Shown here: one piece after another, positions 4,977 to 54,207 of the stretch
How the letters are laid out: each line of letters begins with the position of its first letter
How positions within the stretch are numbered: the first letter of the stretch is position 1
IMG/VR virus record: IMGVR_UViG_3300010413_000020
Location: 1-64,000 of that record
Source of the DNA: a virus
Direction: 5' to 3' (one strand)
DNA length: 64,000 nt
The notes under the pieces: generated by a model
Seen by the model: only the letters and a program-made list of their open reading frames with translations
The model's database searches: none
Told to the model about the DNA's origin: nothing
Made by a program: the position numbers and the translations under genes

Positions 4977-5031
4977 GGGTTTCTCCTTTGTTATTAACGT
5001 ACATTAACAAACTTTAATAGACAAGGGAAAG

Positions 5032-5452
5032 CAAAAAAATTCTGTAGGTGTATTTACAGAATTTTTGTTGGAATGTTCACTACCTTGTTTTATGGGGCTG
5101 CCACCCCAGAGGCTGTCGGTCGAGGGGTATGTTTTGTGCGAAGCACAAGTTTAAGAGCCTAGCGTAGCGCTAGATTTACGTTGTAAATAAATCGTAGTGA
5201 CAATGTTGGCTTGGGGACCGGGATCGGGCCCAGTTTTCCTTCTTCTTGGTCTGAAAGACCAAAGTGAAAGATACTGGCGTAACGCCAGAGTACTTTAGTA
5301 AAGTAATCCCAACAAAGATTGCTATTAGCTGATTTCCGGCGAGCTCTTCCCTCGAGCTCCGCCCGGATGCGTGTCCCTCCGCCCGAAGGGCGAGAGGATA
5401 AGAATCTGTCGTAACGACAGTACTCTCAGTATTTGAAAGATTCCTAATAGCA
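5032..5452. other. structured non-coding element (hairpin cluster)
   Basis: About 480-nt gene-free gap with many short stems closing 3-nt loops, plus long-range complementarities. Confidence 0.65.
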
Positions 5453-5456
5453 TGTT

Positions 5457-6338
5457 TTATATTTTCAATTCTCCAAAAATTGGAATTGATCTTCTCAATA
5501 TTTTTAATCGGTAGTTAGGATGTTTCTGAGAACCCGGCCAATATAAAGAGGGTTGTTTGGTGTTATATATTTTTCCTCTATATGCCATTTCATCAAAAAC
5601 TTTCTGGACTCCTGGAACTACTGTAAGATATGAAGCAACTTCATTCCATTCAGTGTATCCCTTCCCGAGTCGTTTTACTATTTGGCCCACACCTAAATCG
5701 GCTAGCCGTCCGCGGAATGCAGGATGTTCAACTACTTTTTTGATTTCATCTAACGAGTGGCTTATGTGGTTAGGTGGACGTGTTAGTATTTTCTTTTTAT
5801 ACGCAAATTTACGAGGATGAAGCCCTATCGCACATCTATCAAAACGTGATTCTGAAATCATAAGTCCTACAGCTTCACGTATTGGAACACGTACATATTT
5901 ACCGGAACGCAATTTATATTCGGTTTTTTTATGAGCATTATTAATAGCTACAGCCCATTCTAGCGCAGCGTTGTGTATTTCTTCATTAGATTGATAGCGT
6001 TCTCCACACTCCCACCAAATCCCATGTTGGTTTTTCTTTACTAAATTGAAAATACCTTGGGCTAAGGTTATGTCTTTATCTCTATAAAGTGGTGCTTCTT
6101 CTTGTGGAGATTCCTCTGGTTGTTGTGATATTTCTGTTTTTTCCTCCTTTGATTCCAGGGTTGGTCGTTCTATTTCTTCCGGTGGCCCCGCATCTACATT
6201 CGGTATGTCCCCTACCCCCGCATCAATTTGGGGTAGAACTGTCGGGTCACTTGTTACAACCGGTTGTGGGTGTGCACACTTTAATAAAAGGAATAGACCG
6301 CCGAAACACATTAACAGATATTTGACTTTACCTACCAT
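5457..6338 (-). CDS. exported lysozyme-like/SLT-fold protein (putative lytic transglycosylase)
   Basis: N-terminal signal or lipobox-like LLKC; GLMISESRFD..A.G and DLGVGQI resemble SLT motifs I and II. Confidence 0.55.
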   Translation of the reverse strand: MVGKVKYLLMCFGGLFLLLKCAHPQPVVTSDPTVLPQIDAGVGDIPNVDAGPPEEIERPTLESKEEKTEISQQPEESPQEEAPLYRDKDITLAQGIFNLVKKNQHGIWWECGERYQSNEEIHNAALEWAVAINNAHKKTEYKLRSGKYVRVPIREAVGLMISESRFDRCAIGLHPRKFAYKKKILTRPPNHISHSLDEIKKVVEHPAFRGRLADLGVGQIVKRLGKGYTEWNEVASYLTVVPGVQKVFDEMAYRGKIYNTKQPSLYWPGSQKHPNYRLKILRRSIPIFGELKI

Positions 6339-7526: not shown

Positions 7527-7757
7527 CTATAAACCCTTTTTAAGTAAGGGATCATGACAGTCGATATGTACTAATTCATATTCAGGGTAAAGATGAACTC
7601 CCGTTTCTCTTAAATTATCTGGATTAGGTCCTACCATCGCTACAATATTAGCGATACAGACTCGATGACCTGGGCCTAAAGGCCGACGACATTTTCCACA
7701 TGTATTGGTATCAACATGTGGATGTGCGTCTTCTGCTTGGAATTGGTCCCATGCCAT
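7527..7757 (-). CDS. small putative zinc-binding protein
   Basis: CGKC...HIDC; GAGGAG RBS. Confidence 0.65.
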   Translation of the reverse strand: MAWDQFQAEDAHPHVDTNTCGKCRRPLGPGHRVCIANIVAMVGPNPDNLRETGVHLYPEYELVHIDCHDPLLKKGL

Positions 7758-8140
7758 TATCGAACTCCTCTCAACCAGTCTTCCAACGCTCTTTTGGCAG
7801 CAGTTAAAAGCCAGTGGGTTTTTGTTGTGCGATGAGGAATAACGAATTTTTTTCTTTTCAAAGAAGGTTTGACAATTAAGTTTATTAAAGGGGGACTTTC
7901 CGGGTGGATATAACGTTTAATGAGGAGTTTTTCGATAGTACGATTACACGCGGTATTAACTGTTGTTTGTAAATCCGTTCCTTTAACGATAACGACTGCA
8001 GGCATGTTTTCCTTCATATACGGAAGGGTTAAACCTTTTTTAGGAAAGTCTGGGGAACGGAATTGAAACCAAGATACTGCGGCTACAAAAATATCCTTAT
8101 TGGATTCTTTTGTTACAGCAATTCCGGTTTCGATAAGCAT
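7757..8140 (-). CDS. hypothetical protein
   Basis: ORF; ATG 8140 preferred because the 8209 start lies inside the structured element. Confidence 0.55.
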   Translation of the reverse strand: MLIETGIAVTKESNKDIFVAAVSWFQFRSPDFPKKGLTLPYMKENMPAVVIVKGTDLQTTVNTACNRTIEKLLIKRYIHPESPPLINLIVKPSLKRKKFVIPHRTTKTHWLLTAAKRALEDWLRGVR

Positions 8141-8175
8141 AAAAGTAGTTTTGACGTTAACAATCGTTAATGTCA

Positions 8176-8328
8176 AGAGAAACCGCTCACACTTACTGTG
8201 AGAGGACATTGTTAGCTGATCAGATGGCCTCCCATGTCAGTGGTAGGGCGTAGCCCTGGCACCACTGCTGTTCAGGTACTGTAGTTGCTACAGAGTCCAG
8301 CGTAGTTCTAAGTGTGAGCGGAATCTCT
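8176..8328 (-). ncRNA. retron-like msr-msd non-coding RNA (candidate)
   Basis: 20-nt inverted repeat (8176-8195/8309-8328, 13-nt perfect core); on the minus strand CUUA-G...G-UAAG closes the stem; internal stem-loops. Confidence 0.65.
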
Positions 8329-8488
8329 AGTCTATTTTCTTTCCGAGGTCACGAAGATATTTTTTTGTGAACCGAACTTGTTGTCCACAGTATTTGCAGG
8401 TTCCCTTCTCACCGATTTTTGCAACAATTTTGCCATCGCATTTTGGGTTGGTGCAAAGAATGACTTTAGTTCCTGTTGGGCGTGCCAT
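8327..8488 (-). CDS. 53-aa zinc-ribbon protein (absent from the ORF track)
   Basis: MARPTGTKVILCTNPKC...CKYCGQQ...KKID*; AAGGAG RBS. Confidence 0.75.
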   Translation of the reverse strand: MARPTGTKVILCTNPKCDGKIVAKIGEKGTCKYCGQQVRFTKKYLRDLGKKID

Positions 8489-43516: not shown

Positions 43517-44839
43517 TTAATAAGAACGCCTACTTAATCGATGATGTGTGTGAGAAACCCAGTGGAAGTCTTCCCAGTGGTGGTAAACATCTTCCAATGT
43601 TTTTGCTTCTGCGTTAAACCAAGCCGTACCTCTTCCATTACCCAACGAGAAGTTTAGCCGGAGTTCTTCTCGTGCGTAGTAAGTGATTCCTAGAGCGTAG
43701 TATTGAGTACTCCGCCACTTTCCTCGGTGAGTGGGACTGGTCCGATGTCCCGCAAGTTCAATAAGTACCGCTTTCAATTCAGGATTGACAGGAACTCCCT
43801 TATGGGAAGCCTCAATATCTTTTCCGTACTTTTCGATAAAGGTTTTGGCTTCCGCGAAATCAGCAAAGGTTTCTACTCCATTCCAGGGTTTGGTGTGTCG
43901 TACAATTCCGAATTTGAGTTCTTTGCTTTCTACTGCAAAAGTAGTCCAATACTTACAGGAGTTATAACGTTTGTTGAGCTCATAGGCATTGAGTAATAAG
44001 TAGTTCAATTCTGCATCGGTGAATGGAATATGAACTTTATTTAATATCTCAACTACAGCATCCCCCGAACTTATAGGATACGGGCCGGAACACCAACGTC
44101 TTGAATGTTTGTCTCGTTGTCTTAAACAGGTATCTGCTACAAAACATTGAGAGCATACTTCTTTCTCAAACTTGTTAAAACGTTTTCGTTCTTGAATGCC
44201 TTTCTGTATTTGCTGAGACTTGTAATCGATTACTGAAAAGTCATGGTCTTCTGGTAGCCTGAAAGTTTTTCCGAAGTCTTCAGCGAGCGTGAGTCGGGGG
44301 CTAATATAGGTGAATCCTGCAATACGTGAAACACGATTCTTAAGATTCTTGAACGCTTCTCCTATCGTTGCTTCTCCTTCAGTAAGAACTAATTTTTTGA
44401 TAGCACAATCCCTGGGGTTATCTCCTGATTCGAAACAACCCTTACATCCAATAATGGATTTTTGGGGGAGGGTACAACTATAATAGATATCATAAAGATT
44501 GTGTTCCTTGATACCTTCTTTAGGAGAATAAGCTAACACAACTTGTCCTTTCCGCGCTGATTCCAAATCGTGGGCCACACTAGACGCAATTTCACTAGCT
44601 ATTTTCCAACAAAACCCGCCGCTATCTGCGCCAAGCCAGGTATCTCGATAGATTAGGGCTCCTCCTTTCAAAAGATTTTGAAGTTCCGGGTCGTTCATGA
44701 TGAGATGCTGGGTTGCTGGTTCTTCAATTACCGGATCGTTGGAGAGAGAAGTAAATAACATAACGAGAGGGCTGTCTTCATCGACATTGTAGGTATCGGA
44801 AGTTGCGATTGTGAATACCTTATCCGGCGTTTCAGGCAT
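43517..44839 (-). CDS. unknown Cys-rich protein immediately downstream of the RT
   Basis: ATG 44839 (GGGGAGGAG RBS) overlaps the RT stop; CKGC..C and CSQC....C clusters. Confidence 0.75.
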   Translation of the reverse strand: MPETPDKVFTIATSDTYNVDEDSPLVMLFTSLSNDPVIEEPATQHLIMNDPELQNLLKGGALIYRDTWLGADSGGFCWKIASEIASSVAHDLESARKGQVVLAYSPKEGIKEHNLYDIYYSCTLPQKSIIGCKGCFESGDNPRDCAIKKLVLTEGEATIGEAFKNLKNRVSRIAGFTYISPRLTLAEDFGKTFRLPEDHDFSVIDYKSQQIQKGIQERKRFNKFEKEVCSQCFVADTCLRQRDKHSRRWCSGPYPISSGDAVVEILNKVHIPFTDAELNYLLLNAYELNKRYNSCKYWTTFAVESKELKFGIVRHTKPWNGVETFADFAEAKTFIEKYGKDIEASHKGVPVNPELKAVLIELAGHRTSPTHRGKWRSTQYYALGITYYAREELRLNFSLGNGRGTAWFNAEAKTLEDVYHHWEDFHWVSHTHHRLSRRSY

Positions 44840-46004
44840 GACTCCTCCCCTCATATTGTTCTTTAGCTGCGGTAAACTCCGCTAGTAGTTGTGTTCCTTT
44901 CTGGGGATTTATCTGTCCCATGTAATTTATTTTTCCTCGAAGCCATGTGAGGAGTGCTCCGCCATTTTTCTGTCCCGCTTTAGCTGCTTGTGAATCAAAC
45001 CCGTGGACTAGGCAATTGTGGGTGATCGCTCTTACTTTCCTATATTCCATTGCTGGGATATTCGGCCTTTGGTTGAAAACTGTTCCAAGAAGGAATCTAC
45101 CGTAATAGCCGTGGGCAATCTTAGTTTTACCGGGATTGATACGGTAGCCTGTATTATGTACGATAGATTTGATGTCCTCGATGAACTGAAGAGTTTCGTC
45201 TTTACTGAAAGTACGTCCACACGTGAATGATAGGTCATCACAATAACGGGTATACACCCACTTCTTTGTTCCCTCGAGCTTGTCCTTTTCGTTTCGCTTA
45301 TTCAGGTAAGAAATTATCTTCCCATCGAATAAATCGTTTGCTACGAGATTGCATATTGCACCAGAAGCAGGTGAACCCTGGGGAACTCCGCTCAAGAATT
45401 TAGGTACCCAAGCATCCGGAGATAACTTACTTTTGTGGCGATATTGCGGATTGGGAAAATCTGTAACCGTGAGTAGGTTCGCCAGCAGGCTTGCGACTTC
45501 ATGATTATATCCTATCTTCTTGAAGTAGTTACGTATCATGGCGCGACTGGTGGATGGAAAGAAATCCTTGAGGTCCATGTGCACATATAATCCCTTACGC
45601 GGACAGTCATGCGCTTTTGGGGTTTTGGTTCCGGCATCTTCGCAAATTTTACAAGGAGGAATGTGCTGAAGGACGGCGTGTCTACAGGAAAGACCCTTTC
45701 GATAGGCCGTTACGTGAGCCCCTAATTGGTCTTGTAAAGGAACCAAATATCGGATGTGAAGTTGATGGAGCAATAATTTCATCATGTCATTTGGAGAATG
45801 TAAAATGCGATGTCCTTTCTTCTTTTTAGGTATCTTGAAGATTTCGTACATATCCTTCTTGTTCTCCAACATGTACCACATTACCTTATTGCGAAATCCC
45901 AGACTGAAAGCCAACGAACAATCGTCAAACGCATAGGGCACTTCATCCGGAAGATCAGGAAGCTCAATTACAGCAATTTGTGTTTTATTAAATCCCACAC
46001 TCAT
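44832..46004 (-). CDS. retron-type reverse transcriptase
   Basis: F.IPKK..G.R.L..P, AY..G.S...A..H (region X-like), DLKDFFPS, PQGSPASG.ICN, YTRYCDDLSF, INPGKT, LLGTVFN (region Y-like). Confidence 0.9.
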   Translation of the reverse strand: MSVGFNKTQIAVIELPDLPDEVPYAFDDCSLAFSLGFRNKVMWYMLENKKDMYEIFKIPKKKKGHRILHSPNDMMKLLLHQLHIRYLVPLQDQLGAHVTAYRKGLSCRHAVLQHIPPCKICEDAGTKTPKAHDCPRKGLYVHMDLKDFFPSTSRAMIRNYFKKIGYNHEVASLLANLLTVTDFPNPQYRHKSKLSPDAWVPKFLSGVPQGSPASGAICNLVANDLFDGKIISYLNKRNEKDKLEGTKKWVYTRYCDDLSFTCGRTFSKDETLQFIEDIKSIVHNTGYRINPGKTKIAHGYYGRFLLGTVFNQRPNIPAMEYRKVRAITHNCLVHGFDSQAAKAGQKNGGALLTWLRGKINYMGQINPQKGTQLLAEFTAAKEQYEGRSHA

Positions 46005-51433: not shown

Positions 51434-53053
51434 ATGATGAAAGGCAATTTACAGCACTTTCGAATGAGTAGTGTCGCACAGGCATGGCTGCGCCTGGACG
51501 GACAACCCTTTCGATTAGATGATTGGCCGATGCACAAAGAGTTCTACGATGGGAGATTCCGCCGTAGTCTTTTTAAAACAAGTCGTCAGGTGGGTAAGAG
51601 CGTCACCATGTGCAACTTCAGTATCATTGAGTGCTCTCTTATACCGCACTTTTCTACAATGTTTGTGGCTCCCACTAAAGAGCATACCGTTAGATTTTCG
51701 AACACACGTTTAGGAAAGATTCTTCGCTACTCACCGGTTATTAACAAAACTTTTTTACGTACTGAGCTCGCTGATCGTGTGTTTCATAAACAATATACTA
51801 ACGGCTCTGAGATGCTGTTGACCTATGGGTCCGATAGTGAGGAGCGGGTTCGTGGACCTTCAACTGACAGAAACATGTACGATGAGGTCCAGGACATGCT
51901 TTATGACCCGGTTATTACTGTTGGTAATGAAACAATGTCCAATTCTCCTCATGCTTTTGAGACTTATGCGGGCACTCCTAAGACTATGGAGAATACCATT
52001 CAGTATCTCTGGGAGATTTCGACGCAGACAGAATGGGTGATGAAATGTGATGCCTGTGGGTCATACCAATTTATAGATAACGAAAAACACTTGGGGAAAT
52101 TAGGGCCGGTCTGTTTGAAATGCAAGTCTTACTTGAATCCTTTCCATGGCACCTGGATTGATATGAATCCTATAGATTACGGTGCAGGGGAAGACGAAGA
52201 CACAAAATTAAAAGGTTTCCACATATCTCAACCCATGATGCCTTTCAATGTTCCAAAGTCGATGGAAGGGCGTGGAGATATGGAAGAAGTCGCTCTCCGG
52301 CGATGGAAACGTATTATTAATAAGTTCGAGGGTACACCTATCTCTGTATTCCGCAACGAGGTTCTCGGCGTTTCCGACGCTATTGGTACCCGCGTTCTTT
52401 CTAAACAAGAGCTCCAGGCTCTTTGTACTCCCCGTGAAATGCAAGATTTCCCTAATGATAAAACACTTGAAGGAATCAGTCTTACCGTAGGTGGTGTGGA
52501 TTGGTCTGGTGGGGGTACTACAGGCGTTTCTCGTACTGTAATATGGATATGGGGTTTTAGACCTACAGACCGAAAACTAGTCTGTCTTCTCTATAAAGTG
52601 CTTGCGGGAATCAATCCAGTGAATGTCATAGACGAAATTGCAAAAATATTTGATGCATATCGTGTACAACTTGTTATTGGAGATGCGGGTGAAGGCCATA
52701 CGGCTAACAATCTTTTGCGAAGCAAAATTGGAATTCACCGAGTACAGCAAGTACAATATGGTGCCCAAAAAAAGGCTATTAACTGGAATGGAGAAGACCG
52801 TTGGATGGCCGACCGTACAACTCTTATCGACAACTATTTCATGGGTTTGAAACGGCAAGAATTTGAATTTGCTACTCGCTCTGAGATGGAAGTTGCCATC
52901 ACCGATATTCTTAACGAGTATGAGGAAATAACTACAGCAGGTCGTCGTGTTTGGCGTCATTCTCCTCAACGTCCAGATGATTGTCTTCATGCAGGACTTT
53001 TTGGTTGGCTTGCCTTTAAAATGGTTATGGGGGATATGAGAATGTATCAGTAA
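51434..53053 (+). CDS. terL: terminase large subunit (GpA-like)
   Basis: SRQVGKS, RVRG....MYDEVQD, GTPKT, CxxC pairs, GFHISQ, FRNEVLG, GVDW, PDD.LHA; exact start uncertain. Confidence 0.85.
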   Translation: MMKGNLQHFRMSSVAQAWLRLDGQPFRLDDWPMHKEFYDGRFRRSLFKTSRQVGKSVTMCNFSIIECSLIPHFSTMFVAPTKEHTVRFSNTRLGKILRYSPVINKTFLRTELADRVFHKQYTNGSEMLLTYGSDSEERVRGPSTDRNMYDEVQDMLYDPVITVGNETMSNSPHAFETYAGTPKTMENTIQYLWEISTQTEWVMKCDACGSYQFIDNEKHLGKLGPVCLKCKSYLNPFHGTWIDMNPIDYGAGEDEDTKLKGFHISQPMMPFNVPKSMEGRGDMEEVALRRWKRIINKFEGTPISVFRNEVLGVSDAIGTRVLSKQELQALCTPREMQDFPNDKTLEGISLTVGGVDWSGGGTTGVSRTVIWIWGFRPTDRKLVCLLYKVLAGINPVNVIDEIAKIFDAYRVQLVIGDAGEGHTANNLLRSKIGIHRVQQVQYGAQKKAINWNGEDRWMADRTTLIDNYFMGLKRQEFEFATRSEMEVAITDILNEYEEITTAGRRVWRHSPQRPDDCLHAGLFGWLAFKMVMGDMRMYQ

Positions 53054-53286
53054 CTTTTGTCGCTGTCCGCTTATTTTCCAATGATTGCAGTGGAAAAGAA
53101 GTGTTGTCAGAGTCTTTTTGCGAATAATGCCTATTCGCAAAATAGCGCCCTAGCTTGATTGCAAAGAACGGAGCGTAACGCTCCAGCGTCTCTAACAGAG
53201 AGAAGCTCCGACAAAAGTCGCTGACCTTCTGGAGAGGGCCCTTTCAGGTCCTCCTGAAGACGGGACCTCGGCAAGAGGACAAACCC

Positions 53287-54115
53287 GGTACTGCTGTCAT
53301 TAGATGGGGCTTTTATCCCCGGCCCGAGTGGCGTGGGCTTCCACGGGGCAGGCGGGCTCGGGGGTAAAAGAACCAGTAATGGCACTGCTGTCTTAACGTC
53401 CTGTTTAGGGTGCTCCTGATAGCCTGCGACTTGAAGAGGCGCGGCTCTCAGGGGCGTCCCTGAACAGGTGGTTCAGGCACTGCTGTCTTAACGGGCCGGA
53501 ACTGGTCAGAACCGTGGGGTGAGCCGTGAGGCGAAACCCCGGTGAGGACCTAGTCCGGCTGTTCAGGCACTGCTGTCTTTAGAATCTAGTGGCCTGCCAA
53601 AGGAAAAGCGAAGCGATCCTTAGGCAGAGCAGACTAGAGACTAAGGCACTGCTGTCTTATTTTCTCAACGCGAAGCCGCCCGGCTGCAGCACACTACTGT
53701 GCGGAAGCCTGGTGCGGCTGAACGGGGAGAAAATAGGCACTGCTGTCTTATGGGGTCCACACCGCGCACTCCTCGGGGCTGCGGTGTGACGCCTAGGCAC
53801 TGCTGTCCTATGCATTTGCCGCGGGCACTGCATGACATTTCCCGTCCAATTGAATGAAATGCCTGCGAGTGCCTCGCGTCGAATGATTGGGCACTGCTGT
53901 CTTGCATACGTTCCCCGTGCGAGGTGTAATGGTAGCCGAAGGGGCCATTATCACCTGCGGGGGAACATATACAGGCACCGTTGACTTTGCTCGGGCCCAT
54001 GTGCCCAACGGCAGTGGGCTCCGTGCAAGGCACTGCTGTGATCTAGGAGACGAAAGCCACCACCCCGTGGTGAACAAAGTGAACCACTCAGGTGGTGGCG
54101 CGTTTCCTAATCGCG
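53287..54115. repeat. array of ten 14-nt direct repeats (consensus GGCACTGCTGTCTT) separating unique hairpin units
   Basis: Repeats start at 53287, 53381, 53476, 53566, 53645, 53736, 53796, 53890, 53974 and 54029; spacers 41-81 nt, each self-complementary. Confidence 0.92.
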
Positions 54116-54207
54116 ACAATCAGTAATGGAGCGTATCGCTCCGACTCCGACAGCGCTCTGTTTTATAATACAGATGGAGTTCCAGTACCAAAAGCTTATA
54201 CCGATAG

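Follow-up and report, generated by a model that had tools for sequence, protein, structure and literature searches.

Whether a retron RNA can be encoded far from the reverse transcriptase (RT) that it serves is the question raised by a hairpin-rich element in the DNA of an uncultured phage. The stretch analysed here, termed the window, comprises 64,000 nucleotides and is the first 64 kb of a virus record of 107,281 bp; among the sequencing runs listed, two DNA runs contain the stretch, identical to the window, and no RNA run is listed. Retrons are bacterial defence cassettes with one non-coding RNA (ncRNA) beside the RT. The a1 and a2 ends of this RNA pair with each other, a conserved G directly 3' of a1 serves as the branch or priming residue, and one to three short msr hairpins near the 5' end are accompanied by an msd stem-loop that is long and stable. 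ncRNA and RT gene adjoin each other in one cassette, the RT carries the motifs NAxxH and VTG, and the msDNA is 2'-5' joined to the G. The first-pass annotation had read positions 8176-8328 as an msr-msd-like element far from its RT, with a zinc-ribbon gene and DinG for neighbours. A retron-clade RT is in fact encoded about 37 kb away, in a separate gene cluster, but the element is not a lone one, since the genome holds at least two clear copies.

The inverted-repeat, hairpin-rich character of the element stood up in its arms, its folding and its relatives. On the minus strand the whole element (8176-8328, here copy E1, with an outer 5-bp extension of its helix and an R1 self-score of 193 bits) is bounded by two arms of 20 nt each (8176-8195 and 8309-8328), which are 90% complementary and enclose an interior of 113 nt. 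The arms form a closing helix, P1, of 13 perfect pairs (8183-8195/8309-8321), a 2-nt bubble and 5 further pairs, 18 bp in total. The 5' arm of P1 (8309-8321, minus strand), which is a1-like, is followed by G8308 and then A, while the 3' arm (8183-8195, minus strand), which is a2-like, comes after a CACAG junction ending in G8196, so that both guanines named by the first-pass annotation can be read directly at the inner ends of the inverted repeat. Inside the helix, P2 is a 6-bp hairpin with a CAA loop (8279-8293, minus strand), P3 is a variable hairpin, here of 7+5 bp with a 3-nt bulge (8238-8267, minus strand), and P4 is a 6-bp helix that includes one G-U pair and closes a loop of 22 nt (8200-8233, minus strand). 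All three hairpins are seen in the fold centroid, and P4 aligns with the equivalent helix in G012 and G004. The minus-strand RNA folds at -65.4 kcal/mol with a z score of -5.65, against -4.38 for the plus strand. An alternative local hairpin of 6 bp with a 5-nt loop (8186-8202, minus strand) shares the 3' arm of P1, and the region of its 5' arm (8192-8205) repeats the a1 region directly, with 11/14 identical positions. The sequence of E1 occurs once in the genome. The inverted repeat on its own is weak evidence, because chance alone would give about 0.4 perfect 13-mer inverted repeats of this spacing per 107-kb genome; the structure is considered real because relatives repeat its architecture with different helix sequences and compensatory changes.

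Relatives were sought by plain comparison and by structure. At the DNA level nothing in the INPHARED phage collection matched the query, an exact-pattern scan of viral contigs for both arms of E1 found none, and no tRNA was found by ARAGORN. Rfam 15 returned nothing for the window at gathering score, with chance-level matches alone at E up to 10. This null is uninformative about retrons because Rfam 15 misses the genuine Ec86 ncRNA too: in a control at E up to 0.01 it held no family for that RNA (L211:1495-1680) or for the type XIII RNAs of Myxococcus (L231-L235), and the long Myxococcus hairpin was matched by microRNA models. MAFFT failed to align the copies, and covariance models were needed. 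The phages compared were those of a DinG alignment, in which 77 loci from phages of about 170-190 kb share the same gene order, and a metagenome scan gave two closer relatives, L112 (DinG 74% identical) and L113 (60%); beyond these, the contig scan for DinG returned bacterial DinG alone, below 31% identity. DinG relatives of 50-76% identity stood mostly outside the family search.

A covariance model built from the window copy alone and run without filters gave matches in three relatives, on the downstream side of DinG at about 3 kb, and in L113. A descriptor was also used; it asked for an NNA triloop, closed by G-C, on a hairpin of 6 bp or more that lies within a helix of 8 bp or more with flanking G...G. 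On the DinG loci it gave 24 sense versus 4 antisense matches, and 10 versus 1 in a stricter form; judged by these sequence matches, the RNA family is specific to the transcribed strand. Covariance model and descriptor together revealed about 25 relatives of E1 in 11 related phage genomes or contigs, with 1-4 copies per relative, either single or in tandem sets of two to four, in which a U-run follows the last copy alone. In the whole-genome search the family model R3 scored E1 at 83 bits (E 5e-16), whereas model R2 with default filters missed known members. One good copy (G006:C1:74352-74484, 42.7 bits) lies about 55 kb from the tandem set of its genome. Another genome has a family-like element (G001:C1:13231-13610, L196) whose P2 letters are those of the hairpin flanking an array in the window; it is far from the DinG cluster and adjoins a nearly perfect hairpin of about 100 bp with an MFE of -150 kcal/mol. 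Long inverted repeats within coding regions of the same genome, G001, were put down to chance.

The folds of the members revealed a common layout: a P1 of 8-18 bp, GA, an optional hairpin, P2, P3, the P4 region, CAG or AAG, and the 3' arm. The P1 sequences differ between copies, and the GA after the 5' arm, the AG before the 3' arm and the triloop hairpin are common to all. P2, with its NNA triloop closed by G-C, is the signature of the family; P3 often has a UUCG-type loop, and the P4 region often contains a CGAGCUC-like motif. Covariation was assessed in a model-based alignment of 12 members, which is fitted to the structure and thereby favours pairing; in it 96.5% of the pairing cells are paired, compared with 61.8% in shuffles. 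Double-sided changes were observed in 26 of the 32 pairs, including all 13 pairs of the closing helix. The covariation score was 0.687 against 0.155 in shuffles, none of the 500 being as high, and it dropped to 0.06-0.11 when the partners were slid. The msr-like stem with a CAA loop that had been noticed from the letters corresponds to P2, which is 100% paired in the 12 members with compensatory changes in four of its six pairs, and all seven outer pairs of P3 covary. The GA junction past the 5' arm was found in 10/12 members and the AG ahead of the 3' arm in 11/12; the base after a1 is G in 11/12, and the twelfth row reflects an alignment offset. Wobble counts (GU/UG 5 versus AC/CA 6) leave the functional strand unfixed. 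It is well supported that E1 is one copy of a conserved, multi-copy and previously undescribed family of structured RNA in large marine phages, and the part left to chance in explaining E1 is negligible.

The window holds further copies. E2 (5315-5452, minus strand) lies about 3 kb downstream of DinG, the usual site of the family; it was found by the descriptor and by R3 (31.6 bits, E 3e-5) and has an orthologue at L112:4327-4470. The remainder of the 480-nt non-coding stretch beside E2 (4977-5314) shows more 6-bp triloop hairpins, unmatched by the family models, and since relatives carry two to four tandem copies there, these hairpins may be decayed or divergent copies of the family. On the plus strand, antisense within a 293-aa ORF, positions 5604-5739 gave 14.8 bits with a single-sequence model and have a P2-like hairpin with a CAA loop, a match that is probably due to chance. 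The 293-aa gene upstream of E2 was considered as an RNA enzyme and set aside, as it resembles, weakly, a lytic transglycosylase instead.

A borderline, family-like copy, E3 (53052-53219, minus strand), was picked up by the descriptor (R2 10.1 bits; R3 12.7 bits, E about 0.5) at the end of an array of ten hairpin modules (53287-54202, minus strand), the latter read by eye and without a model. In the same reading, the leader of the array consists of an a1-like 7-mer, the GA junction and a P2-like hairpin, and every linker closes with CAG and the complement of that 7-mer. The junction motifs of the family are thereby used again, with a single 5' arm facing ten possible partners on the 3' side. 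The whole array could be taken for a giant member of the family, and 7/9 of its units fold better as plus strand. A 9-mer of the array linkers occurs nine times in the genome, eight times in the array and once on the 5' side of P3 in E1; this common 9-mer is only suggestive of a tie between the two, and by BLAST the similarity of E1 to the array is at chance level (E 3.7). A scan for the array repeat gave a sole match (L005/L006), an unrelated coding repeat. In three distant, RT-bearing relatives the array site is occupied by three to four tandem repeats of about 192 nt (L106:13564-15265, L107:3344-4943 and L108:3449-5597), in which a conserved core hairpin was seen and the family layout was not evident.

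The position of E1 among the genes bears on its origin and 3' end. The gene order ahead of the spacer is a DinG-like helicase and a UDG-family gene, and then the zinc-ribbon gene of 53 aa (8327-8488, minus strand), the last of the DinG unit and the upstream neighbour of E1, in agreement with the first-pass annotation. On the downstream side a 150-aa ORF (7757-8209) overlaps the element. Since homologues align from residue 24-29 of this ORF, its true start is ATG 8140, which gives a gene of 127 aa without family match (7757-8140, minus strand); E1 therefore lies wholly within an intergenic spacer of 186 nt. The 3' arm of E1 ends in GCGG and is directly followed by six U in eight bases (8175-8182, minus strand), making a terminator-like end together with P1 and running into TTGACA (8171-8176, minus strand), a -35-like box for the downstream genes that is conserved both in L112 and L113 and in relatives further away. 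In the DinG-locus relatives the equivalent spacer has a few bases, or a plain hairpin and T-run and then TTGACA. L112, the closest relative, is without the element at this site and retains the promoter, while L113 has a different structured element of 125 nt there (z -6.4 on the sense strand) with an identical U-run and TTGACA. As in an intrinsic terminator, a G+C-rich stem and a U-run stand at the end of the unit, syntenic with the plain terminators of the relatives, but the loop is not short, for 113 nt of structured RNA separate the arms. Because the U-run leads into TTGACA and the alternative hairpin uses the 3' arm, the closing helix is in terminator position, and helix and U-run probably end the DinG/zinc-ribbon transcript and set the 3' end of the RNA. 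The TTGACA box is also part of a 10/11 palindrome (8141-8176, minus strand) reading TTGACATTAAC, 4 nt, GTTAACGTCAA; the half-sites in L112 are nearly identical, with a spacer of 5 nt, and the palindrome resembles an operator no less than a promoter.

The RT is encoded at 44832-46004 on the minus strand and overlaps both neighbouring genes, leaving no adjacent non-coding space. Its best profile matches in PADLOC were retron RTs throughout, with RT_XIII at the top (4e-49, 166 bits), whereas against the NCBIfam retron profile it scored 127 bits, below the cut-off of 235. The alignment of the RT family displays Y[ACS]DD, with [AS][AV]xxH and xLG where the retron motifs NAxxH and VTG would stand, and a conserved Cys/His insert, CxxC...HxCP, between the early finger motifs of the window RT and its relatives (L099-L110). 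The gene block, consisting of a DUF2201 metallopeptidase/VWA protein, a 217-aa protein, the RT and a 445-aa protein, keeps its order in 11 relatives; the 217-aa and 445-aa neighbours match no family. In the window and these 11 relatives the genes are tightly packed, and no space for an RNA gene was found beside the RT. The RT is present in 14/30 related genomes and in 9/13 of the near-complete ones, and a search of INPHARED with it gave only matches of 24% identity.

How the RNA family and the RT are distributed relative to each other is the main evidence on whether they cooperate. The whole-genome model search gave matches in eight genomes alone, all of which have the RT except one 53%-complete fragment, and every complete or near-complete genome with a family match carries it. 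The same search found no family match in the RT-lacking genomes, nor did it find one in seven more distant RT-bearing genomes; because of these seven, the co-distribution may reflect one clade only. In every case the family members lie tens of kb from the RT. The proposed link between RNA and RT rests on this co-distribution within one clade, which is confounded by phylogeny. Compared with the cDNA-sense strand, the would-be template parts have an equal or better fold in 12/18 members and in 7/9 array units, a weak trend in favour of the link.

A mechanism is preferred, tentatively and at somewhat less than even chances, in which the family is the RNA partner of the orphan retron-clade RT and works in trans. 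In this model the family RNA would supply both template and primer to the RT of the phage. After binding at the P2/junction region, the RT would use the 2'-OH of the junction G (8308) for priming. Copying would begin at the base that precedes the 3' arm (about 8197) and run across P4 and P3, and the resulting cDNA would measure roughly 70-85 nt. The array with its 10 modules would be an enlarged form with several products. Against the mechanism count the several, often tandem copies per genome, the distance from E1 to the RT, the short stem at the msd position in E1 and the absence of a copy from this site in L112. An extension of the model, which we regard as rather unlikely in its full form, is a split, multi-template retron, in which one RT and two partner proteins would be served by E1, E2 and the array to make a repertoire of ssDNA hairpins during infection.

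The strongest rival to this mechanism, which we rank after it as a serious possibility, dispenses with the RT. The family would be a stable small RNA, cut from operon 3' ends or tandem precursors like tRNA clusters and acting, for example, as protein scaffold, decoy or regulator, with the closing helix as a processing or terminator stalk. Tandem sets with a U-run past the last copy alone are what such precursors would look like. The UUCG-type loops and the CGAGCUC-like motif conserved within P3/P4, and the recurrent G-U pair in P4, fall in its favour as well, since motifs and a G-U pair conserved in the would-be template point to selection on the RNA itself. So do the seven distant RT-bearing genomes without a match and the placement of the RT in another gene cluster. 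A stable RNA would, however, leave a retron-clade RT without template RNA, and the tenfold repetition in the array of the 3' junction and 3' arm alone would go unexplained; nor was any candidate partner protein or target found.

Two further accounts were weighed. E1 could be merely an elaborated intrinsic terminator or 3' stabiliser of mRNA with no separate function, as it takes the exact position of the relatives' plain hairpin and T-run before TTGACA, has a simple local terminator hairpin embedded in it, and is missing here from the closest relative; we hold this to be improbable, because phages with DinG proteins of only 30-40% identity still have P2 and the junction motifs in common, and because most family copies are internal to tandem sets and without a U-run. 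Alternatively, the conserved unit could be DNA, either a small MITE-like mobile insertion or a hot spot of recombination bounded by terminal inverted repeats. Presence, absence and replacement at one site among the window, L112 and L113, the variable copy number, and the direct repeat of the a1 region beside the 3' arm are all of the kind that such an element leaves behind. Its arms, unlike conserved transposase sites, differ in every copy and covary, the flanks lack a target-site duplication, the matches are biased to one strand, and conservation is found at the inner rather than the outer ends of the arms, which makes a DNA-level origin very improbable. Template RNA for the phage RT is kept as the preferred mechanism, with the stable RNA as its principal competitor.

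What is at stake can be described from the two components. A group of uncultured phages of roughly 170-190 kb conserves a retron-clade RT gene with no RNA alongside, and the same genomes carry an undescribed, well-supported RNA family with the closing helix and G layout of a retron. Should the two cooperate, no natural retron before this one would have had its RNA encoded at a distance from the RT; several templates would serve one RT, a retron would be used by a phage and not against one, and compact new scaffolds would become available for making DNA in cells. Should they not, the family would still be a new, strongly covarying class of phage RNA.

Among known systems, the type XIII retrons are the nearest on the protein side, as they provide the best RT profile match and likewise combine the RT with conserved accessory genes; strong matches to the type XIII RT are found in genomes of Myxococcus and Polyangiaceae (L231-L235). 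According to Mestre et al. 2020 (PMC7736814), the type XIII RT is accompanied by a SWIM zinc-finger/winged-helix protein and by a HEAT/ARM protein, whereas the neighbours of the phage RT, of 217 and 445 aa, match no family. In a Myxococcus type XIII locus (L232) a very long hairpin immediately precedes the RT gene, and the family model R3 found no match in the type XIII loci of Myxococcus or in the Ec86 locus. On the side of the site, the likeness is to the intergenic terminator-promoter cassettes of phages, of which the promoter-early stem-loops in T4-type phages are an example. E1 shares with them a G-C-ended stem, a U-run and a -35 box between gene units, and a site whose content varies; it differs in that its 113-nt loop is a conserved, covarying structure and that most family members are found off unit boundaries.

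On the RNA side the closest comparison is Retron-Eco1 (Ec86), whose closing-helix and G geometry, as named in the first-pass annotation, agrees with the locus as read from the E. coli C chromosome (L211). There a 12-bp stem with UUA-G is answered by G-UAA and the stem, two short hairpins precede a 22-bp msd stem, and the ncRNA lies about 80 nt upstream of the RT. Like Ec86, E1 has its ends paired in a helix of 12-13 bp, both with UUA-G / G-UAA; a variable hairpin comes after short ones on the 5' side, the total length is about 150-170 nt, and a retron-clade RT is in the genome. Unlike Ec86, which is single-copy and shares one transcript with its RT, E1 is one of several copies and 37 kb off, is followed by a U-run, and bears conserved motifs in the would-be template; to our knowledge, the multi-copy, tandem layout is unlike that of any described retron. 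The msd-like hairpin of the first-pass annotation holds in part: the 7+5-bp P3 is there, but in the place of the 22-bp msd stem E1 has two short hairpins, P3 with 12 bp and P4 with 6 bp. Some relatives have a longer stem at the msd position, of about 19 bp in the last G012 copy. In sum, since an Ec86-like RNA family and an RT without an RNA of its own are carried by the same phage genomes, E1 is a good, if unproven, candidate for a retron template.
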